In this document: positions 929 to 18,865 of the stretch, piece after piece
How positions within the stretch are numbered: position 1 is the stretch's first letter
Layout: every line of letters starts with the position of its first letter
NCBI GenBank assembly: GCA_028711115.1
Contig: JAQTSV010000001.1
Location: 646,032-710,031 of the forward strand
Direction of reading: 5' to 3'
DNA: 64,000 nt
Source: Candidatus Omnitrophota bacterium
GTDB taxonomy: Bacteria > Omnitrophota > Gorgyraeia > Velamenicoccales > JABMQK01
Notes under the pieces: generated by a model
Told to the model about the DNA's origin: nothing
Databases searched by the model: none
Seen by the model: only the letters and a program-made list of their open reading frames with translations
Made by a program: the position numbers and the translations under genes

Positions 929-1660
929 GTGAGTTTAGCTAAAGAGATAGCCGGTTGGATTAAAAAGAAAGTAAAACAAGCCAAGGCTGAAGGCGTAGTT
1001 ATAGGCTTAAGTGGCGGGATAGATTCTTCCTGTGTGGCAGTTCTTTCCAAAATGGCTTTAGGCAGTAATGTTTTGGGTTTGATTTTGCCCTGCCAAAGCG
1101 ATTCTCAAGACGAAAGGCTGGCCAGGCTTTTAGCAGATAAATTTGATATAAAAGTAGAAAAGAAGACTTTAGATCCAGTATACGAAAAGTTAAAAGAAAC
1201 TTTGCCAAAAGCAGGGAAATTGGCTATGGTTAATCTTAAACCGAGATTAAGGATGCTGACCTTGTATTATTTCGCCAATAAGATGAATTATTTGGTAGCC
1301 GGTTGCGGTAACAAAAGCGAAATTACCGTCGGTTACTTTACCAAATATGGCGACGGAGGCGCAGATATATTTCCTTTGGGAGGATTATTAAAGACAGAAG
1401 TAAGAAAATTAGCCAAGGAGTTGGGAATACCACGTGAGATTATAGAAAGAGCACCTACTGCTGGATTGTGGCAGGGTCAGACCGATGAGTCCGAGATGGG
1501 CATTACTTATGAAGATTTAGATAAGGCAATTATAGCTATAGAAAAAGGCAAGGCGCGCAGTTTATTTTCGCAGGAAATTGTCGCTAAAGTTAAGAATTTG
1601 ATACGAGTATCAGACCATAAAAGGCTGCCGATTCCCATATACGAAAAAGGCAGAAGCTAA
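929..1660 (+). CDS. nadE: NH3-dependent NAD+ synthetase
   Basis: 243-aa ORF with a GTG start preceded by AAGGAG. SGGIDSS PP-loop motif; short form without a glutaminase domain. Confidence 0.9.
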   Translation: MSLAKEIAGWIKKKVKQAKAEGVVIGLSGGIDSSCVAVLSKMALGSNVLGLILPCQSDSQDERLARLLADKFDIKVEKKTLDPVYEKLKETLPKAGKLAMVNLKPRLRMLTLYYFANKMNYLVAGCGNKSEITVGYFTKYGDGGADIFPLGGLLKTEVRKLAKELGIPREIIERAPTAGLWQGQTDESEMGITYEDLDKAIIAIEKGKARSLFSQEIVAKVKNLIRVSDHKRLPIPIYEKGRS

Positions 1661-1819: not shown

Positions 1820-3184
<1,365 letters not shown>

Positions 3185-3323: not shown

Positions 3324-4835
3324 ATGGATAAAGAAAAATTAATTAACTTTTTAAAAAGAAATTGGTGGGTTTTTTTTGTAGTAATTTTTGCGGCGATAGA
3401 AGTGTATTGGATATGGCAAGTTGAATACTTGGGCTTCCAAGATCACCCCTCGCATCTTTTTAGGCTTCACGTTGTAGCTAACTACAATAATCCTCTCTAC
3501 GATTATCATAAATATTTTCTACTAAATTGGGGCTTAACACCTAATCAGGGTTCGGATATCATTGTATTCTTGCTCAGTAAGATTTTTTCTGTCCAGGTTG
3601 CAGGAAAGCTATTTTTTTGCCTTTATATTATACTTTTGCCGTTGAGTATGTGGTATTTTCTTAAGGGAGTCCGTCCAGAAAATTGTGCCTATACTCTTTT
3701 GGCAAGCGCGCTTAGCTTTAGTTATTTTGTCAAGATGGGGAATGAAAATTTCTTAAGCAGTATCCCTGTTTTTTTATTTTTCTTGGGGTATTGGTACAGG
3801 CATAGAGATAATTTCACCGTTTATACCCAGCTTACCAATAGCTTGTTGTTACTTTTCTTGTATTATTGCCACATGCTTTCATTCGTATGTGCACTAGTTA
3901 CAATAATAGCCGTATCTCTTGTTGAAAGAAAAAAGTTGCGTACTATTTTAAGGACTATTCTTGTTTCTCTGCCTGGCCTTTTTCTATTTTTCGCATGGGT
4001 AATAAGAATTATGCTGCAGGGAGCAACAAAAGAATCCGGGTTGTTGTATATAACTCCGTATTCTTCCTGGTTACATAAAGCGCGCAGCCTTACTTATGGT
4101 ATTTTTCCTTTCTCTTTTGCAACTCTTAGTGTTTCAAATATCTTGATAAGCTTATTTTTAATTCTCGTCTTCTATATGATAATTGTTGGCATCGTTTATA
4201 GATGGCGACAGGGGAAGAGAATCTGGCTGTGGGCCATAATTACTCTGACCTTCTTCGCTATAGTATTGCCGCGTGATTTTATTATATTGATGCCTGGACA
4301 ACGCATTATTTATTTGGTTTTGCTTATCGCCCCCGTTATTTTCTTAAATAAGGGAATACTGCGATTTTGTTTTCTGAGTTTTCTTATTGTTTTCACTGCT
4401 ATGGCACGTATTGATGAAACGGAATATCTTATTACGGGAGATAAAATCATTTCTTATATTGTTGCTCCTTTCAAAGAAGTTCCTCAGGTTGCAATTAACC
4501 ATCAGGAAAAGGTTTTACCGCTGGTTTTGTATCCTTACAAGGTACATCCTTTTGGCCATCGAGTATTCGAATACTACAATCTATTTAATGGCGGGGTTAA
4601 TCCCTATCATGCCATGTCTCATCTTTTTACGGTGCGTTACCGCATAAACCTGCCAGCCTCTCATATATATGAATCGAAAATAAATAGCGAAATATTTAAG
4701 GCATACGATATTATCATTGTTATCGGTAGGGATACCTATAAAGGTAAAGGGAAGGGATTATTGGATTATCTTTCGTCTATCGGTTTCAGGGAAATCAGTG
4801 GGAATGCAATTACGGCTGTCTTGAAGAAGCTATAG
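3324..4835 (+). CDS. Polytopic integral membrane protein of unknown function (possibly GT-C-like)
   Basis: 503-aa ORF with about 11-12 hydrophobic segments and a C-terminal ~130-aa soluble part. No family motif recognised with confidence. Confidence 0.7.
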   Translation: MDKEKLINFLKRNWWVFFVVIFAAIEVYWIWQVEYLGFQDHPSHLFRLHVVANYNNPLYDYHKYFLLNWGLTPNQGSDIIVFLLSKIFSVQVAGKLFFCLYIILLPLSMWYFLKGVRPENCAYTLLASALSFSYFVKMGNENFLSSIPVFLFFLGYWYRHRDNFTVYTQLTNSLLLLFLYYCHMLSFVCALVTIIAVSLVERKKLRTILRTILVSLPGLFLFFAWVIRIMLQGATKESGLLYITPYSSWLHKARSLTYGIFPFSFATLSVSNILISLFLILVFYMIIVGIVYRWRQGKRIWLWAIITLTFFAIVLPRDFIILMPGQRIIYLVLLIAPVIFLNKGILRFCFLSFLIVFTAMARIDETEYLITGDKIISYIVAPFKEVPQVAINHQEKVLPLVLYPYKVHPFGHRVFEYYNLFNGGVNPYHAMSHLFTVRYRINLPASHIYESKINSEIFKAYDIIIVIGRDTYKGKGKGLLDYLSSIGFREISGNAITAVLKKL

Positions 4836-6130: not shown

Positions 6131-7666
6131 TTAGAGTAGCGGCAAGTATTTCTTAATCTCGTGCTGTGAAATTTGGATTCGGTAATCGTCCCACTCTTTC
6201 TTTTTATTGAATAAAAACCTCGAGAATATATGTTCGCCCAAAGTATCTTTTATAAATTTACTCTTTTCCGTTTCTAAAATAGCCTCAAATAAGTTTCCCG
6301 GCAAAGCGACGAGGCCTCGGCGCTCGCGTTCTTCCATCGCCATATGATAGATATTCGGTTCGATAGGCGAGGGGATGGGGTATTTTTTCTCAATGCCTTC
6401 AAGGCCCGCTGTCAACATTACCGCAAACGCCAGATAGGGGTTGCAGGCCGGGTCCGGGCAACGCAGTTCTGCGCGAGTTGCTTTCTCATTTCCTGGCCGA
6501 TAGAGAGGAACCCTGATTAAAGCAGTGCGGTTTTTATGCGCCCAGGAAACATATACCGGCGCTTCGTATCCTGCGACCAATCTTTTATAAGAGTTTACCC
6601 ATTGAGCGGTTAAAGAAGATATTTCACGCGCGTGTTTTAATTGGCCGGCAATAAACTGCTTGGCTGTTAAAGACAAGTGGTGGCTGTCTTTGGCGTCGAA
6701 AAACGCATTGCGGTTGCCGCGAAACAGCGACTGATGGCAGTGCATGCCAGAACCAGCTACGCCAAAAATCGGCTTGGGCATAAATGTGGCATATACGCCG
6801 CTCTGCTGGGCAACTTCTTTAATCACATATTTGGAGGTAATTACGTTATCTGCCGCTTCTAATGCGCCGCAGTATTTTGGATCTATTTCATGCTGGCTGG
6901 GCGCGACTTCATGATGAGTCGCTTCCATGGTAATACCCATTTCTTCCAATATGCGCACAGTCTTATTGCGCAGCGTATCTGCCAAGTCGTTGGGAATTAA
7001 TTCAAAATAAGAACCCTCGTCGATAATTTCAGGTTTTTTATCGGTCTTAAAATAGAAGTATTCGATTTCGGGCCCTACAAAAAATGATAAACCTATTTTT
7101 TTTGCGCGTTCCAAGGCGCGTTTTAAGACGTAGCGCGGATCGCCTGCGTAGGGAGTTCTATCCGGATTAAGGATGTCGCAGAATAACCTGGCAGTGGGGT
7201 GCGTTTCCATAGTCCAGGGTAATATCTTAAAGGTATAAGGGTCTGGCTGGGCGATAATGTCGCTTTCCTCTGCCTCGGCAAATCCCGTGACAGATGAACC
7301 GTCGAAACCTTTCCCGTGTTCGAGGGCTTCCGCGAGTTCGCCTTTAGTGATAGAGACGCACTTAAGTATTCCCAATATATCCACAAACCATAGCTGTATC
7401 GTTTTTATGTTATAGCTGTCTATTTTTTTGAGGACTTCTTTTGTGGAAGACTTTTCAATCTTGACAGTCTTGGGCATATTTATCCCTGTTGCCTTTCCCA
7501 TATCTTGGGATATCTTTTTAGAGAGGAGCTGGTTTTTTGGGATTATATACTGTCTTCCTGCGCGTTCGGCAGCCAGCGTGCCATGTTTTATCCTGTCGAT
7601 GACGGCTTGACGGGAGAGTTTTAGTATTTTTGCTGCTTCCGTGGGGCTTAAGTATTCCTTTTCCAT
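6131..7666 (-). CDS. glnA: Type I (GSI-alpha-like) glutamine synthetase with N-terminal helix-turn-helix domain
   Basis: 511 aa with AAGGAG SD. Residues 1-47 resemble an excisionase/MerR-like HTH. The rest has GS motifs FFVGPEIEYFYF, HHEVAPSQHEI, GSGMHCHQSL, NSYKRLVAGYEAP, NRTALIRVP. Confidence 0.9.
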   Translation of the reverse strand: MEKEYLSPTEAAKILKLSRQAVIDRIKHGTLAAERAGRQYIIPKNQLLSKKISQDMGKATGINMPKTVKIEKSSTKEVLKKIDSYNIKTIQLWFVDILGILKCVSITKGELAEALEHGKGFDGSSVTGFAEAEESDIIAQPDPYTFKILPWTMETHPTARLFCDILNPDRTPYAGDPRYVLKRALERAKKIGLSFFVGPEIEYFYFKTDKKPEIIDEGSYFELIPNDLADTLRNKTVRILEEMGITMEATHHEVAPSQHEIDPKYCGALEAADNVITSKYVIKEVAQQSGVYATFMPKPIFGVAGSGMHCHQSLFRGNRNAFFDAKDSHHLSLTAKQFIAGQLKHAREISSLTAQWVNSYKRLVAGYEAPVYVSWAHKNRTALIRVPLYRPGNEKATRAELRCPDPACNPYLAFAVMLTAGLEGIEKKYPIPSPIEPNIYHMAMEERERRGLVALPGNLFEAILETEKSKFIKDTLGEHIFSRFLFNKKKEWDDYRIQISQHEIKKYLPLL

Positions 7667-7913: not shown

Positions 7914-8615
7914 ATGCCAAAGTCTTCTTATAAATCCTATATCGACACTCTGAATAAAATCAGCACGGCAATTACCTCGGATCTTTATCTCGAAGATATG
8001 CTTAAGCTGATCGTCACATTGACAGCGAATGTGATGCAGGCAAAGATATGCGCTTTGTGGTTGTTGGACCAGGGTACTCAAGAGCTAAAAATAAGGGCCA
8101 CGCAGGCCATGAGCAGTGATTATTTAAAGGACAGGAGCCTGAAAGTAGGCGAGGGCATAGTAGGTTTGGTGGCAAAAGAAAAGAAACCCCTGGTTATCCC
8201 CGATGTTTTAAAGCACCCCAGCTATAAAGAAAAAAAGTTAGCCCATAAAGAAGGTCTGGTTTCCATGGTAAGCGTTCCCATGATGGTTAAGAATAAGGTT
8301 ATCGGTGTGATAAATTGCTATACCACTACCTCCTATAAATTTACCAAAAACGATATCAATCTTTTAGCTACAATAGCTAATCAGGCGGCAGTGGCTATAG
8401 AGAATACAGAATTGATGGTTAAGACAAAGGTGATTCAGGAAGAATTAGATGCAAGGAAGAAGATAGAGCGGGCAAAGGGGATTCTTATGAAAGAAGAGAA
8501 TCTCACAGAGGAACAGGCGTACAATTTGATAAGAAAATCCAGCATGGATAAGCGCCTTAATATGAAAGAAGTTGCAGAAGCAATCATACTTGCTTACGAA
8601 GTAAAGAAGAGCTAG
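7914..8615 (+). CDS. GAF domain - ANTAR domain RNA-binding antitermination regulator
   Basis: 233 aa. N-terminal GAF-like region (EGIVGLVAKEKKPLVIPDV...VIGVINCY). C-terminal ANTAR-like helices (IERAKGILMKEENLTEEQAYNLIRKSSMDKRLNMKEVAEAII). Confidence 0.85.
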   Translation: MPKSSYKSYIDTLNKISTAITSDLYLEDMLKLIVTLTANVMQAKICALWLLDQGTQELKIRATQAMSSDYLKDRSLKVGEGIVGLVAKEKKPLVIPDVLKHPSYKEKKLAHKEGLVSMVSVPMMVKNKVIGVINCYTTTSYKFTKNDINLLATIANQAAVAIENTELMVKTKVIQEELDARKKIERAKGILMKEENLTEEQAYNLIRKSSMDKRLNMKEVAEAIILAYEVKKS

Positions 8616-11432: not shown

Positions 11433-12950
11433 ATGACAAATAAGATAGGATTTGATAATGAAAAATATCTCAAGGAGCAAACAGCGGCTATTTTAGAAAG
11501 AGTAGAGAGATTTAACAATAAATTATATCTGGAATTTGGGGGAAAAATTATTTTTGATTATCATGCCTCGCGGGTCCTGCCAGGTTTTGACCCTAATGTC
11601 AAGATGAAACTATTGAAGAAATTGAGCAACAAAGCCGATATTATACTTTGCATTTATGCTGGAGACATAGAGCGGAAAAAACTGAGAGCGGATTTCGGAA
11701 TTACTTATGATGTGGATGCGCTAAAGTTGATCGATGATTTAAAAGAACGGGGTGTTCAGATTAGTGCAGTGGTTATTACTCGTTTTGAAGATCAGCCGGC
11801 AGCCAAGATATTCAAGAATAAGTTAGAGCGCCGGCATATAAAAGTACATACCCACAGGTTGATAAAAGGATATCCTGTTGAAGTAGATGCTATTGTCAGC
11901 GACGAAGGATACGGACAGAATAGTTATATTGAAACCGAGAATCCTTTGGTTATAGTTACCGCCCCTGGGCCGGGCAGTGGAAAGCTATCCACTTGTCTTT
12001 CGCAGTTATACCACGATTATAAAAGAGGCAAGAAATCCGGTTATGCCAAATTTGAAACATTTCCCATCTGGAATATACCGCTCAAGCATCCTGTTAATGT
12101 GGCCTATGAAGCGGCTACCGCAGATATCAGAGATTTTAATCTTATCGATCCTTTTCATCTGGAAGCATACAATGAAACAACCATTAACTACAACCGCGAT
12201 GTGGAAATATTCCCTTTGCTGCGCAGGATATTGGAAAAGATTACCGGTTCAGAAGCACCATATAAATCTCCTACGGATATGGGAGTGAATCGCGCCGGCT
12301 TCGGCATCATCGATGATGAAGTGATTCAGGAGGCAGCAAAACAAGAGGTCATTCGCCGGTTCTTTAATTATTCTTATGAATATGCCATGGGTTTCGTGGA
12401 TAAGGAGACAATACAGCGTGTAGAACTGCTTATGGAAGAGCTCAGTGTCAAACCTGAGAATCGGCGCGTAGTAAGTTTTGCACGTCAGGCCGCTAAAGAT
12501 GCAGAGAAGAATAAAAAAGGTAATGAAGGAATTTATTGCGGCGCAGCCATAGAATTGAAAGACGGCTCGATCATTACAGGAAAAAATTCTCCTTTAATGC
12601 ATGCAACCTCCAGCCTTGTGTTGAATGCCATAAAACATCTGGCAGAAATTCCCGACAAGATACATCTTTTGTCACTCAGCACCATAGAATCAATCAGAAA
12701 ACTTAAAGAAAATATCTCTAGTAAAAAGATAGTCAGTTTGAATTTAGAAGAGGCGCTGATTGCCTTAAGTATAAGCGCAGCGGCAAATCCTACTGCGCAG
12801 TTAGCAATGGAGAAATTAAAGGAGCTTCAGGGTTGTGAAGTGCACATGACACACATACCTACCCCGGGAGATGAGGCAGGATTAAGAAGATTAGGCGTTA
12901 ATATTACCATTGAGCCAAACTTTTCTTCCCAGTGGCTCTTCGTATCATAA
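11433..12950 (+). CDS. UPF0371 / DUF1846 family protein (function unknown)
   Basis: 505 aa with GGAGGGG SD. The N-terminus [20 protein letters not shown] and the overall length match my recollection of UPF0371 proteins. Confidence 0.75.
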
Positions 12951-12971
12951 TAACATCATGGAGGTGGAGTA

Positions 12972-14420
12972 ATGAGCGGAATTTTCGGTGTAGTCTCTAA
13001 AGATGATTGTGCGGAGATTCTTTTTTATGGCACGGATTATCATTCACATTTGGGCACCGAATACGGCGGAATGGCGGTGTTCGGGAAACAATTCAGCCGG
13101 CAGATACATAATATCAGCCAGAGCCAGTTTAAATCCAAGTTTTTCGACGACTATAAACACATGAAAGGCAACAAAGGTATCGGTGCGATTAGCGCCTCTG
13201 ATGAACAACCGATTTATCTTAATTCAAGGCTGGGCCCGTTCTGTGTAGTGACCAACGGATTTATAGAAAACAGCGAAGAATTAATGTCTCAGCTGCTGAA
13301 GAAGGGTGATTCTTTCAGCGAAGTCAGCAGAGACAAGGTTAATACCAGCGAGCTCGTTGCTAAATTAATCAGCCAGGGTGATGACATAATCGATGGCATA
13401 GAAAAGATGTTTACAATGATTAAAGGTTCCTGTTCGCTTTTACTGCTTAATAGTGAAGGGGTCTATGCAGCCAGAGACAGGTATGGCTATACGCCCTTGA
13501 TAGCAGGAAGGCGTCAGGACACCTGGGCGGTGACTTCTGAGACGAGCGCTTTTCCCAACAGCGAATTCGAAACGGTCAAATATCTCGGCCCGGGAGAAAT
13601 AATATTTATAAATGAAAGCGGCATGACAGAGAAAAAGGCCGCAGGAAAGACTAATCAGATTTGCGCCTTTCTTTGGATATACACCGGTTTTCCCGCTTCT
13701 AATTACGAAGGTATTAATGTAGAGATTGTAAGAGAAATGTGCGGCCGCTGTTTAGCAAAACACGACAAAGATATAGATGTGGATGTTGTCTCCGGAGTTC
13801 CTGATTCAGGAATCGCCCATGCCATAGGCTATGCCATGGAGTCAAAGAAACCATATAGGAGGCCGCTGGTAAAATATACGCCCGGCTATGGCAGAAGCTA
13901 TACTCCTCCGTCGCAAAAGACGCGTGATTTAATAGCCAAGATGAAACTTGTACCCATAAAAGATATAATTAAGGGCAATAGAATTGTAGTGTGCGAAGAT
14001 TCAATAGTAAGAGGCACGCAGCTCAAGAATTTCGCCATAAAGAAATTATGGGATTGCGGTGCCAAGGAAATTCACGTAAGGCCAGCATGTCCGCCTCTTA
14101 TGTTTCCCTGCAGATTCAATCTTTCCACGCGCACCATACACGAACTTGCTGCCCGCCTGGCTATCCGCAGTCTGGAAGGCCAGGATTTGGAAGACGTCCT
14201 AGAATATGTCGATCACACCACCAATAAATACAAGAAGATGGTGGATTGGATTTGCCGTGATTTAGGAGTTACCACGTTACGATATCAGACTATAGACGAT
14301 ATGGTAAAAGCTATAGGCCTACCCAAAGACAAGCTTTGTCTATATTGTTGGACTGGCCAATGTCCTGCATCAAAAGATTCAGATATAAAAAAAGAGACCA
14401 AAAGAGCCTGTGTGGTTTAA
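12972..14420 (+). CDS. Amidophosphoribosyltransferase (PurF)-like protein with non-canonical N-terminal domain
   Basis: 482 aa with GGAGGTGGAG SD. PRPP loop VVCEDSIVRGTQ, VPDSGIAHAIGYA, and Cys pattern resembling [4Fe-4S] PurF (CAFLWIY, PCRF, CLYC). The N-terminus is MSGIFG instead of MCGI(V/F)G. Confidence 0.8.
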   Translation: MSGIFGVVSKDDCAEILFYGTDYHSHLGTEYGGMAVFGKQFSRQIHNISQSQFKSKFFDDYKHMKGNKGIGAISASDEQPIYLNSRLGPFCVVTNGFIENSEELMSQLLKKGDSFSEVSRDKVNTSELVAKLISQGDDIIDGIEKMFTMIKGSCSLLLLNSEGVYAARDRYGYTPLIAGRRQDTWAVTSETSAFPNSEFETVKYLGPGEIIFINESGMTEKKAAGKTNQICAFLWIYTGFPASNYEGINVEIVREMCGRCLAKHDKDIDVDVVSGVPDSGIAHAIGYAMESKKPYRRPLVKYTPGYGRSYTPPSQKTRDLIAKMKLVPIKDIIKGNRIVVCEDSIVRGTQLKNFAIKKLWDCGAKEIHVRPACPPLMFPCRFNLSTRTIHELAARLAIRSLEGQDLEDVLEYVDHTTNKYKKMVDWICRDLGVTTLRYQTIDDMVKAIGLPKDKLCLYCWTGQCPASKDSDIKKETKRACVV

Positions 14421-14453: not shown

Positions 14454-15371
14454 ATGAAAATGAAGAGGAAGATTGTCTTTATTGTAGGGCCTACGGCATC
14501 GGGAAAGACTAAGCACGCCCTGAAATTAGCCAAAAAGATAGGCGGAGAAATTATTTCCTGTGATTCAATGCAGGTTTACAGAGGATTGAATATTCTGAGC
14601 TGTAAGCCGTCTCGCAAGGAAAGAAAACAGGTAAAACACCATTTGATTGATATCATTAATCCCGATGATGATTTCAATGTCAGTAAATTCATAAAATTAA
14701 GCAGCCAATCAATAGAGAAAATTCACAGTAAAGGTAAGATTCCTATTTTTGCCGGCGGGACAGGATTGTATGCCGAGTCTCTATTGAACGGACTTTTCCA
14801 GGGCCCCGCAGCCAACCCTAAAATAAGAACAGGGCTTTATGAAAAAGCAAAAGCCTATGGCAGCAGTTATCTTTATAAAAGATTAAAAAAGATCGATCCT
14901 CAGGCCGCAGATAAAATCCATCCTCATGATTTAAGAAGAATTGTAAGGGCGCTTGAGGTTTATCAAGTTACGCATAAACCAATCACCAAATTACAGACAC
15001 ACAGAAGCGGCCTCGCTCAAGAGAAACGTTTTAAAAACTATATTTTTGGTCTTATTATGCCCAGAGAAAAATTATACACAATGATAGATGAGCGGGTTGA
15101 TGAGATGTTTAGACAAGGCGTAGTTAAAGAGGTATCAGGTTTATTAAGGAAGAAGTGTTCCCAGACGTTTAAGCAGGCTTTGGGAATCAGAGAAATTAAT
15201 TCGTATCTAAAAGGAGAGATTGATCTGGAAGAAGCAAAGCGTCTGTTAAAACGCAATACGCGCAGATATGCCAAGAGGCAAATGACGTGGTTTAAAAAGA
15301 ATCGCAGAGTCCGGTGGTTAGATAAAGGGATTTCCGGAAATTTAAAAGAGATGACAAAGGCAATTGTTTAA
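14454..15371 (+). CDS. miaA: tRNA dimethylallyltransferase
   Basis: 305 aa with GPTASGKT P-loop and DSMQVYRGLNI motif. Confidence 0.92.
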   Translation: MKMKRKIVFIVGPTASGKTKHALKLAKKIGGEIISCDSMQVYRGLNILSCKPSRKERKQVKHHLIDIINPDDDFNVSKFIKLSSQSIEKIHSKGKIPIFAGGTGLYAESLLNGLFQGPAANPKIRTGLYEKAKAYGSSYLYKRLKKIDPQAADKIHPHDLRRIVRALEVYQVTHKPITKLQTHRSGLAQEKRFKNYIFGLIMPREKLYTMIDERVDEMFRQGVVKEVSGLLRKKCSQTFKQALGIREINSYLKGEIDLEEAKRLLKRNTRRYAKRQMTWFKKNRRVRWLDKGISGNLKEMTKAIV

Positions 15372-17365: not shown

Positions 17366-18865
17366 ATGTTAACCGCTAATCTTAAATTAATCCGAAAGTA
17401 TATTTTTCTAATTGTTACCGCCGTTTTTATTTTTCAATTTACAGATTCCTGCTATGCAAAGGCCAGAAGCCTTATCCATAGTTTTGATTACTCCAAATTA
17501 TCCAAGCAGGAAATAAAGGAAGAGGTAAAACTTCTTTATAAATATGCAAAGAGTGCTTATGAAGAGAATGATATTGAAACAGCAAAACTTTTCTTTTATC
17601 AAATATTAGAATTAGATCCTAGTCATATCGGAGCAAATAGATATATTGATGTCATAATCCCTAAGCAGCTAAGCACAATGAAGTATCTTGAAGGCAGGGA
17701 CAAGCGGGTGTTGGCAGAGGAGAGAAAAGAATTCGAACAGCTGAGAAAGGAGAAATTTGCAGAGAGTGCCAGGATGCAACTTGAGTTAATCCAGCAGGAA
17801 CGGTTAGCTAGAGAAGGTGCCTATAAAGATAAAACACCACAGCCAGATAAGAAAGCAGAGATGAAACTAAAAATTGAGGCTGAGAAAAAGAGGAAGGAAG
17901 AAATTAAAGAAGCAAAGCAGAAAATGCTTTCCGATATGAAAATGTATTTGGCAGCAAAGCATAAGCAGAAAGAGGATGCTAAAAAAAGCAAAAAAACTGC
18001 CCCAAAAGATAAAGAAATAGCTAAAGAAATGGAAAGAGAAAAAAAGCAGGAGATTCAGCAGAGGGCGGCGGCGGATAAAGAAAAATTAAAGAAAAAGTCT
18101 GCTCAGGAAGCGATGGAAAAAGAACTGGTAAAGATTCAGAAAGAACGGGAACGTTTATCCGATAAGGAAAAGAAAGAAATAGCAGAAAGAGAAAGTAAAA
18201 GAGAAAAAATTATAGAGGCAAAACAGCAAAAACAACAGGAGAAAGAAAACGCAAGACAGGAAAAGCTAAAGAAGAAAGAGGATGAAAGTTTAATAAAATC
18301 ACAGAACAAAGCTAAAGTGATTGATAATAAGCAGCAGAAGGTCAGTAAGAAAGAGGTCAGCAGAAAAATAGAAGAGAAGATATCTAAAGAGGAAAAAGGG
18401 AAGGCTCAGCGCAAAGCCAAAATGGAAGAGGAAAAGCTCAAGAAGAAAGAGCTCATTTTAAAGAAAGAAGAAGCAAAGCTGAAAACAAAAACAAAGGAAG
18501 CAAAGGTTGTCCCTGCAAAGAAAGAAAAACCTTCACCAAAAAAAGAAGAAGTGACAAAAGAAATACAGAAAAAGATTACAGAATCTCAAGATAAGAAAAA
18601 AGAAGAACTCGCCGAAAAGAAACAGGCAGCTATTTTGAAGATATACCAGGAAAAGATCAGGGTTGCTTCGCAAAAAGGTAAGAATGCCCGGATGAAAGCT
18701 TTATACAATGAAGGTATGTATTGTTACAGGACAGGTAAATATGATTTAGCCCTGGGGGCTTTTAAGGAAATTTTAGAATTAGATCCTTCACAGCTCAAGG
18801 CAGCAGATTATATCTATATTTATATTCCAGAAGCACAGAAAGATATAGCGATAAAAGAAAGATAG
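17366..18865 (+). CDS. Secreted or anchored protein: TPR-like module, ~330-aa Lys/Glu-rich helix, TPR-like module
   Basis: 499 aa with a hydrophobic N-terminus. Both ends carry related modules (ILELDPSHIGANRYIDVIIP / ILELDPSQLKAADYIYIYIP). Confidence 0.7.
   Translation: MLTANLKLIRKYIFLIVTAVFIFQFTDSCYAKARSLIHSFDYSKLSKQEIKEEVKLLYKYAKSAYEENDIETAKLFFYQILELDPSHIGANRYIDVIIPKQLSTMKYLEGRDKRVLAEERKEFEQLRKEKFAESARMQLELIQQERLAREGAYKDKTPQPDKKAEMKLKIEAEKKRKEEIKEAKQKMLSDMKMYLAAKHKQKEDAKKSKKTAPKDKEIAKEMEREKKQEIQQRAAADKEKLKKKSAQEAMEKELVKIQKERERLSDKEKKEIAERESKREKIIEAKQQKQQEKENARQEKLKKKEDESLIKSQNKAKVIDNKQQKVSKKEVSRKIEEKISKEEKGKAQRKAKMEEEKLKKKELILKKEEAKLKTKTKEAKVVPAKKEKPSPKKEEVTKEIQKKITESQDKKKEELAEKKQAAILKIYQEKIRVASQKGKNARMKALYNEGMYCYRTGKYDLALGAFKEILELDPSQLKAADYIYIYIPEAQKDIAIKER
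17696..18686 (+). repeat. Purine-rich low-complexity coding tract (K/E-rich)
   Basis: Almost continuous AAA/AAG/GAA/GAG codons. No fixed-length DNA repeat unit seen. Confidence 0.75.

Follow-up and report, generated by a model that had tools for sequence, protein, structure and literature searches.

What reaction is carried out by a protein that keeps the fold of the amidophosphoribosyltransferase PurF and lacks the residues with which PurF handles glutamine? In the textbook enzyme, an N-terminal cysteine releases the nitrogen used in the committed step of purine synthesis from glutamine. The question is raised by an open reading frame (ORF) at 12972–14420 on the forward strand of the window, i.e. 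the whole 64-kb stretch analysed here, from a Candidatus Omnitrophota bacterium (assembly GCA_028711115.1, contig JAQTSV010000001.1, positions 646,032 to 710,031). Its product is a Cys-less PurF-like protein, named FAM here together with its relatives. Judged from the sequences, FAM comprises PurF paralogues that have lost glutamine hydrolysis and that form a clade of their own, old and under strong constraint, and we put at roughly 0.5 the probability that its members are glutamine-independent, ammonia-dependent phosphoribosyl pyrophosphate (PRPP) amidotransferases. This reading is supported because the glutaminase site is gone, the phosphoribosyltransferase (PRTase) site and the Fe-S cysteines are intact and the PurF fold is kept; because FAM holds the purF slot of pur operons, some of which have no Cys-bearing PurF (Cys-PurF); because its neighbours use ammonia or nitrogen (carB, pyrJ, glnA and an aspC-like aminotransferase, with NadE, glutamate dehydrogenase and GlnA in the window); and because FAM is more conserved than canonical PurF and so is not decaying.

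The protein and its two domains

The N-terminus, MSGIFGVV, is forced by the DNA 5′ of the start codon (TAA CAT CAT GGA GGT GGA GTA ATG). An in-frame stop (TAA, 12951–12953) lies 7 codons upstream, and direct reading found no ATG, GTG or TTG start and no Cys codon between it and the ATG. A longer N-terminus or propeptide bearing a cysteine, which the initial annotation of this ORF had named as something that could overturn it, is thereby ruled out, and the Shine-Dalgarno sequence and MSGIFGVV start that it described are in place. It had also raised sequencing error as a source of the Ser codon. A search of 5.8 billion proteins, from which the best 120 matches were taken, returned relatives that are 75–81% identical and come from Omnitrophota, Planctomycetota/Phycisphaerae and Elusimicrobia. 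As 119 of these begin with MSG and the remaining one with MMSG, Ser2 is not an error. The features of the gene are as follows.

12960..12969 (+): Shine-Dalgarno-like GGAGGTGGAG, correctly spaced 5′ of the ATG (direct sequence reading)
12972..14420 (+): coding sequence of FAM, 482 aa (B. subtilis PurF match, TIGR01134 score below cutoff, AlphaFold2 model and Foldseek)
12972..13655 (+): N-terminal nucleophile (Ntn)/class-II-amidotransferase-like domain, about residues 1–228, with a dismantled glutamine site (Pfam GATase_7, residue table)
12975..12977 (+): codon of Ser2, which aligns with the nucleophile Cys1 (HMMER alignment, residue table)
13035..13058 (+): DYHSHLGT, residues 22–29, the family signature in place of LQHRGQE of PurF, with Leu27 at the Arg26 position (family alignment)
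13098..13115 (+): RQIHNI, residues 43–48, replacing the KGxGLV motif; R43 and H46 are family-specific, near-invariant and polar
13176..13211 (+): GIGAISASDEQP, residues 69–80, the shortened glutamine loop; S74 is invariant in the family (alignment, residue table)
13254..13259 (+): Asn95-Gly96, the oxyanion-hole equivalent, kept in the window's subclade; the Gly2 subfamily has Val-Ser here
13344..13346 (+): Thr125 at the position of Asp127, the ligand of the glutamine alpha-amino group (residue table)
13656..14381 (+): type I PRTase domain with a B. subtilis-type [4Fe-4S] site (alignment, residue table, Foldseek)
13662..13664 (+): Cys231, Fe-S ligand 1 (B. subtilis C236), 99% in the family
13797..13811 (+): VPDSG, the pyrophosphate (PPi)-binding loop, residues 276–280; P 94%, D 97%, S 100% and G 98% in the family
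13872..13928 (+): KYTPGYGRSYTPPSQKTRD, the flexible catalytic loop, residues 301–319; K301, R308 and R318 100% conserved
13986..14021 (+): VVCEDSIVRGTQ, the PRPP-binding loop, residues 339–350; D343, S344 and R347 100%, G348 99%, T349 97%
14109..14111 (+): Cys380, Fe-S ligand 2 (B. subtilis C382), 99% in the family
14337..14348 (+): Cys456-x-x-Cys459, Fe-S ligands 3 and 4 (B. subtilis C437 and C440), 96–97% in the family

The best match of the protein in the PDB is B. subtilis PurF (1gph/1ao0; HMMER, E 4e-58). An AlphaFold2 model (pLDDT 84.7, pTM 0.84) has the two-domain PurF fold, with Foldseek returning 1ao0 and 1gph at TM 0.79–0.84 (E 7e-42, about 30% identity) and superposition on the B. 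subtilis, Arabidopsis and E. coli enzymes giving TM values of about 0.8. Profile matches are less specific. Pfam recognises a generic class II amidotransferase domain in the window protein (GATase_7, residues 74–194) and solely generic GATase_7 or GATase_6 across the family, and NCBIfam gives the purF equivalog TIGR01134 below its cutoff (222 bits against 350 for the window protein) together with weaker matches to other amidotransferases. The advice that the protein should not simply be annotated purF was therefore sound. Every member of FAM is named amidophosphoribosyltransferase in the databases. All motifs quoted in the initial annotation were located in the protein: GIGAISASDEQP at residues 69–80, VPDSGIAHAIGYA at 276–288, VVCEDSIVRGTQ at 339–350, ICAFLWIY (C231), PCRF (C380) and CLYC (C456, C459).

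A residue audit of 102 FAM and 22 canonical PurF sequences, in B. subtilis numbering, revealed how far the glutamine site has been taken apart. The Cys1 position is C in 100% of canonical sequences and S (44%), G (44%) or T (5%) in FAM; in the HMMER alignment with B. subtilis PurF it is occupied by Ser2 of the window protein, as the initial annotation had it. Arg26 (R in 100% of canonical sequences) is L in 86% of FAM and Leu27 in the window protein. The loop carrying R72, Y73 and T75 (E. coli R73, Y74 and T76) is present in canonical PurF and deleted in 100% of FAM, so that the glutamine loop of the window protein is 8 residues shorter (GIGAISASDEQP against IGHVRYATAGGGGYENVQP in the canonical protein). 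The oxyanion Asn102 (N in 72% of canonical sequences) is V in 45% and N in 15% of FAM. Asp127 (D in 81%) is replaced by P, T, Q or S, with Thr125 in the window protein. The roles given to E. coli and B. subtilis PurF residues, other than those attributed below to a cited paper, follow the PurF structural literature. The initial annotation had singled out Cys1, Arg26, Arg73, Asn-Gly and Asp127: the first three and Asp127 have lost their equivalents, in line with its view that the glutaminase half is likely inactive or repurposed, and Asn-Gly survives in the window protein as Asn95-Gly96.

FAM lacks four features that define PurF, namely a nucleophilic Cys, the residues that bind glutamine (Arg26, Arg73 with Tyr74/Thr76, and Asp127), a family-wide oxyanion Asn and an equivalog-level score. 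A divergent or mis-started PurF of the ordinary, glutamine-dependent kind is effectively refuted. The database name and the best PDB match speak for it, but there is an in-frame stop 7 codons upstream and no Cys, the score is below the TIGR01134 cutoff, the glutamine-site residues are lost family-wide, and genuine Cys-PurFs that are only 32–34% identical lie alongside FAM in other genomes.

The possibility that Ser replaces Cys as an Ntn nucleophile, also raised in the initial annotation, is not supported as a property of the family. Ser and Gly have about equal shares of position 2; Arg26, the loop and Asp127 are lost; the oxyanion Asn is usually Val; and on these grounds a family-wide Ser nucleophile is unlikely. 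The conserved N-terminal Ser of a Ser-Ntn hydrolase is invariant only in the window's subclade, and there are whole subfamilies with Gly2-Val95-Ser96 (the G-type set starts with MGG in 110 of 120 sequences). Some residual Ser-dependent activity is conceivable in the window's own Ser2-Asn95-Gly96 subclade. Here the Ser-type proteins would still be Ntn hydrolases, in which Ser2 would attack some amide that is not glutamine and the ammonia would be channelled to the PRPP site. Ser2 is invariant in the best 120 relatives and covaries with Asn95-Gly96 (117/171 Ser-type sequences), as Gly2 does with Val95-Ser96, and Ser-Ntn hydrolases such as penicillin acylase exist. Moreover, FAM proteins always start with Met and a small residue, with no extension or propeptide. 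Met before a small residue is usually removed, and residue 2 should therefore have a free alpha-amine throughout the family. Nevertheless, we consider this very improbable: Asn95 is missing from 54 of the 171 Ser-type sequences, Gly-type proteins, which make up half of the family, have no nucleophile and yet share its invariant motifs and contexts, the Arg and Asp that anchor the substrate have been lost together with the covering loop, and the Cys1-to-Ser mutant of E. coli PurF is inactive with glutamine, at least according to the summary in PMC3261824.

In place of the glutamine site there is a new motif. The invariant DYxSHLGT, within a wider signature [FY]GTDY[HN]SHLGT, replaces LQHRGQE; D22, Y23, S25, H26 and T29 are invariant or nearly so. 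With R43, H46, S74 and S153 they make up the invariant polar residues of the N-domain that are specific to FAM.

The PRTase half looks intact, as the initial annotation had judged. The type I PRTase apparatus is present as VPDSG, K301/R308/R318/K325 and EDSIVRGT. In B. subtilis numbering, K305, R311, R321, K328, D346, S347 and R350 are 100% conserved across FAM, G351 99% and T352 97%, and the residues of the PDSG loop 94–100%. The flexible loop KYTPGYGRSYTPPSQKTRD is the region of lowest pLDDT in the AlphaFold2 model, as expected of a mobile loop. Changes on the side of the PRTase site near the nucleophile are mild (F313 to Y/F, I314 to M/T). The Cys residues that had been likened to the B. 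subtilis Fe-S ligands do align with them (C231, C380, C456 and C459 with C236, C382, C437 and C440), so that the four [4Fe-4S] ligands of the B. subtilis-type subgroup are all present, in 96–99% of the family. Between ligands 2 and 3 there is a family-specific insertion of about 20 residues (76 residues against 55 in B. subtilis PurF), located at residues 395–431 (about nt 14154..14264), predicted to be helical and with conserved R395, A397, Y412 and M423. B. subtilis R245, D247, R307 and Y308, which contribute to the nucleotide-feedback sites, are replaced in FAM by Y/F, A, T and G/T, respectively.

Extent and constraint of the family

A wider search of 1.84 billion cluster representatives (50% identity) gave at least 8000 candidates, with N-termini such as MSGIFG, MGGFFG, MTGLFG and MAGLFG. 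Scans for conserved-peptide patterns gave at least 600 matches in contigs from one genome per species and at least 600 in metagenome contigs. Among the best 160 loci of these scans, bacterial members came from Desulfobacterales, Syntrophales, Bacteroidales, Clostridia, Spirochaetes, Acidobacteriota, Gemmatimonadota, Verrucomicrobiota/Lentisphaerae and Anaerolineae, and archaeal members from Altiarchaeota, Methanobacteriota, Thermoplasmatota and Asgard archaea. Most of the organisms are anaerobes. In a neighbour-joining tree, a simple distance tree, FAM forms a single clade with Ser-type and Gly-type branches, separate from the canonical Cys-PurFs and from smaller Cys-less lineages.

Of the latter, a second Cys-less clade has A, V or S at position 2 and the motif FYQQHLGEE (P0213, P0214, P0231, P0234, P0235, P0239, P0244, P0270), and further isolated Cys-less PurF-like sequences retain the HRG motif. 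With both in view, loss of the PurF nucleophile seems to have happened on several occasions. Domain fusions in the core family (TPR, and TIR in one divergent member) are uninformative on function. P0207 (665 aa) is a divergent Cys-less PurF-like protein with a C-terminal TIR domain, in which the scaffold may have been recruited to a conflict or defence system. A weak PRTase-CE match was seen in P0345.

Conservation was compared in pairs at 13 loci where a canonical Cys-PurF lies beside FAM (12 with full-length pairs). Within one genome the two are 32–34% identical. Between Planctomycetota-type and Omnitrophota-type loci, identity is 71–72% for FAM and 51–52% for canonical PurF; between bacteria and Asgard archaea it is 53–56% and 38–43%, and between Asgard archaea and Anaerolineae 63–71% and 34–47%. 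Both domains contribute, with a mean identity of 62% against 53% for the N-domain and 69% against 59% for the PRTase domain. A decaying pseudoenzyme is ruled out, as both FAM domains are the more conserved in these paired genomes. By this measure the N-domain of FAM is more strongly constrained than a working glutaminase domain.

Genomic neighbourhoods

BLAST comparison with Pfam-defined reference proteins was used to identify the neighbours of FAM at 165 non-duplicate related loci. In at least 22 of these, FAM occupies the purF slot of a pur operon. The genes counted were carB (14 loci), purM (14), canonical purF (13), a LOG-family gene (8), an aspC-like aminotransferase gene (8), pyrJ (7), purL (7), purQ (7), purB (7), purE (6), purD (5) and glnA (4). 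A typical order is purB-purL-LOG-purQ-FAM-purM-...-purD-purE (L023, confirmed with Pfam). Cys-PurF directly follows FAM in L123 and in the partial loci L122 and L126, directly precedes it in L018, and occurs in the order purF-purM-FAM in L007, L008, L012, L090, L093 and L096. Operons of the same type in L022, L023, L114 and L128 have FAM and no Cys-PurF within the 10-kb flanks. FAM is thus the constant member at the purF slot of the purB-purL-LOG-purQ-FAM-purM operon type, since Cys-PurF is present in the L123 type and absent from these four. As the only replacement of purF, FAM is ruled out for at least the 13 loci with an adjacent Cys-PurF. The LOG/SLOG gene (PF03641, ‘possible lysine decarboxylase’, of the nucleotide phosphoribohydrolase type) lies inside pur operons at 8 loci (e.g. 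L023:4734-5423), between purL and purQ/FAM in L022, L023, L114, L122, L123, L125, L126 and L128.

The adjacency of canonical purF at 13 loci is also what would be expected if FAM were non-catalytic or regulatory, binding PRPP as a subunit or sensor for canonical PurF (or for CarB/PyrJ). PurF enzymes are oligomers, and the changes at R245, D247, R307 and Y308 affect the nucleotide-feedback positions. Such a role nevertheless appears quite unlikely. The residues of the catalytic loops, not all of which a mere binder would need, are 97–100% conserved; there are pur operons with FAM and without canonical purF; FAM evolves more slowly than the enzyme that it would regulate; and it often stands alone, e.g. 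at the Bacteroidales locus L086.

Pyrimidine genes are the other recurrent neighbours. carB lies beside FAM, on either side and mostly at 50 nt or less (L004, L009, L042, L043, L058, L060, L065, L070, L073, L074, L091, L097, L103, L113, L117), and in L073 and L074 glnA also follows the carB/FAM pair. No adjacent carA was found in the ten carB-FAM loci whose full gene order was inspected. FAM often stands at the position expected of carA. The idea that it serves as a stand-in glutaminase subunit of CarB is unsupported, half of the family being without a nucleophile. At many other loci the neighbours are uninformative.

In the window itself, FAM and its surroundings are arranged as follows.

11433..12950 (+): DUF1846/UPF0371 gene, PyrJ homologue, 21 nt upstream of FAM (Pfam, NCBIfam, PDB match)
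14454..15371 (+): miaA, tRNA isopentenyltransferase, 33 nt downstream of FAM (Pfam IPPT)
929..1660: short NadE, 243 aa, with no glutaminase domain, the architecture of the ammonia-dependent type
1838..3184: glutamate dehydrogenase
6131..7666 (−): glutamine synthetase (GlnA) with an N-terminal HTH_17 domain
7914..8615: GAF-ANTAR regulator

The DUF1846 protein is full-length (PF08903, E 1e-169; PF20921, E 2e-55), scores 774 bits with NF010184 against a cutoff of 631 and matches the S. pneumoniae protein of PDB 7f00 at E 1.6e-157, which places it in the DUF1846 family. [quoted passage not shown] No terminator-like site was seen in the pyrJ-FAM gap or in the FAM-miaA gap; FAM is probably co-transcribed with pyrJ in this organism, and miaA probably belongs to the same transcription unit. 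The pairing of pyrJ and FAM recurs in the window and 6 other loci from several phyla. An obligate partnership with DUF1846/PyrJ was however rejected as a general rule, with adjacency at 7 of the 165 loci and unrelated neighbours in other phyla. No pur genes and no canonical purF occur within the 64-kb window. Assembly GCA_028716625.1 has an identical copy of the locus. Two further ORFs of about 500 aa were noted: 3324..4835 (+), without a Pfam signal, and 17366..18865 (+), with a single C-terminal TPR repeat only.

That the association with carB and pyrJ equals that with pur genes has a bearing on what FAM might act upon. It may be a PRTase with another nucleophile, whose remodelled N-domain pocket (D22, Y23, H26, R43, H46, S74) binds or activates some other nitrogen compound or acceptor in an undescribed PRPP-dependent step common to purine and pyrimidine or nitrogen metabolism. 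The new invariant polar motif at the glutamine site, the N-domain that is more conserved than the canonical one and the 20 or so additional residues that lie between Fe-S ligands 2 and 3 would all fit, as would the canonical purF in the same operon at 13 loci, which argues against pure redundancy. There is also a precedent in beta-lactam synthetase, an AsnB homologue with a dead Ntn domain that has gained a new reaction. We nonetheless consider it unlikely, as the PRTase residues are those of PurF with the mild changes at F313 and I314 only, FAM occupies the purF slot without a canonical purF in L022, L023, L114 and L128, and no consistently co-occurring gene points to a candidate substrate.

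Ammonia as the candidate nitrogen donor

According to the summary that PMC3261824 gives of Mei & Zalkin 1989, change of Cys1 to Ser or Ala in E. coli PurF abolished the use of glutamine and left that of ammonia. Because such mutants still use ammonia, ammonia-dependent synthesis of 5-phosphoribosylamine (PRA) is the default expectation for FAM. The initial annotation had offered ammonia, next to another amine or a Ser nucleophile, as a way in which the protein might work, and of these options we infer ammonia to be the best supported. The reaction would be PRPP + NH3 -> 5-phosphoribosylamine + PPi. PRPP-Mg would be held by the conserved PPi, flexible and PRPP loops, and its C1 would be attacked by free NH3 instead of NH3 released from glutamine. 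Excision of the glutamine loop would open the old glutamine pocket, where D22, Y23, S25, H26, T29, R43, H46 and S74 may form an entry or recruitment site for ammonia or ammonium that feeds the interdomain path. We regard the former glutaminase domain as not vestigial. An ammonia-dependent enzyme would fit anaerobes, since avoiding the ATP cost of glutamine could pay.

Several observations weigh against this reading. A canonical Cys-PurF adjoins FAM at 13 loci from at least 4 lineages; FAM would therefore often be redundant as a PRA synthase and could act elsewhere in the pathway. Linkage to the pyrimidine genes carB and pyrJ (21 loci) is about as frequent as linkage to purine genes, and in the window FAM lies outside any pur operon, between pyrJ and miaA. 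A simple loss of glutaminase activity leaves the higher conservation of the N-domain and its new invariant motif unexplained, and horizontal transfer could explain part of the higher identity among FAM proteins, for instance between Asgard archaea and Anaerolineae. Finally, no characterisation of the family was found in the literature searched, the only related item being a note on an archaeal PurF′.

A more elaborate and rather less probable version would make FAM a dedicated high-affinity, ammonia-dependent PRA synthase. The rebuilt domain, its glutamine loop excised and its D-Y-x-S-H...R..H...S pocket lying behind the free amine of residue 2, would be a gate for the capture and deprotonation of ammonium that leads into the old interdomain channel. 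FAM would act jointly with PyrJ, with CarB encoded apart from carA and with the short NadE in a nucleotide route that bypasses glutamine and saves ATP; as part of the same proposal, many anaerobes short of energy, and Asgard archaea, would use this route. In a radical form of it, the rebuilt pocket would activate a different nitrogen donor altogether.

Comparison with known systems places ammonia-dependent FAM among several partial parallels. FAM shares with B. subtilis PurF (1gph, 1ao0) the two-domain fold, the PPi, flexible and PRPP loops and the four [4Fe-4S] cysteines. It differs in having no Cys1 and no propeptide, in the change of R26 to L, in the loss of the R72/Y73/T75 loop and of D127, in the replacement of R245, D247 and R307, in the insertion of about 20 residues and in its score below TIGR01134. 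Unlike FAM, with its cluster ligands, E. coli PurF has no Fe-S cluster. The Cys1 mutants of the E. coli enzyme, as far as they are described in PMC3261824, likewise combine the loss of the thiol nucleophile with an intact PRTase half and provide a functional model for FAM. However, they are single-site laboratory variants with an otherwise intact pocket, whereas FAM is a natural clade in which the pocket is rebuilt.

The crenarchaeal PurF′ is likewise a paralogue of PurF that lacks the N-terminal Cys; its gene lies close to purF and other genes of the pathway, and an ammonia-dependent PRPP aminotransferase activity has been proposed only (Brown et al. 2011, PMC3261824). FAM resembles it in lacking this Cys and, at the 13 loci with an adjacent canonical Cys-PurF, in its surroundings; pur genes accompany FAM at 22 loci or more, and in the window its neighbours are pyrJ and miaA. 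In contrast to PurF′, which has Ala or Val at the nucleophile position (PMC3261824), FAM mostly has Ser or Gly, occurs mainly in bacteria, and is a much larger family with far stronger conservation. The A/V/S-type clade with FYQQHLGEE, which branches apart from FAM in the neighbour-joining tree, fits PurF′ better, the comparison being by description only, and may represent the crenarchaeal group that Brown et al. 2011 described. Both the concept of a Cys-less PurF paralogue and the ammonia hypothesis were therefore already known; what appears to be new here is a large, uncharacterised Cys-less family.

The relation between FAM and PurF would also be like that between PyrJ and PyrG, an ammonia-only enzyme beside a glutamine-dependent amidotransferase for the same step of a nucleotide pathway. 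PyrJ is however structurally unrelated to PyrG and biochemically shown, whereas FAM is homologous to PurF and its function is predicted. The beta-lactam and carbapenam synthetases, homologues of AsnB, have an Ntn domain without the Cys nucleophile and an active synthetase domain. In those enzymes the second domain has taken on a new reaction of secondary metabolism; FAM by contrast is of a housekeeping type, lies in nucleotide operons and has an unchanged PRPP site.

Taken together, these data describe a very large family in which the glutamine half of the PurF mechanism has been removed and replaced by something even more conserved. Because the members are uniformly annotated as amidophosphoribosyltransferase and the Pfam and NCBIfam matches are generic or below threshold, purF may be miscounted when the metabolism of uncultured anaerobes is reconstructed, or a way into purine synthesis that needs no glutamine may be overlooked. 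In the Omnitrophota bacterium studied here, the probable co-transcription with pyrJ and the nearby NadE, glutamate dehydrogenase and GlnA suggest that nucleotides are synthesised directly from ammonia, saving the ATP of glutamine synthesis. If FAM does use ammonia, it would be a parallel to PyrJ, and many anaerobes might run ammonia-direct versions of several amidotransferase steps.

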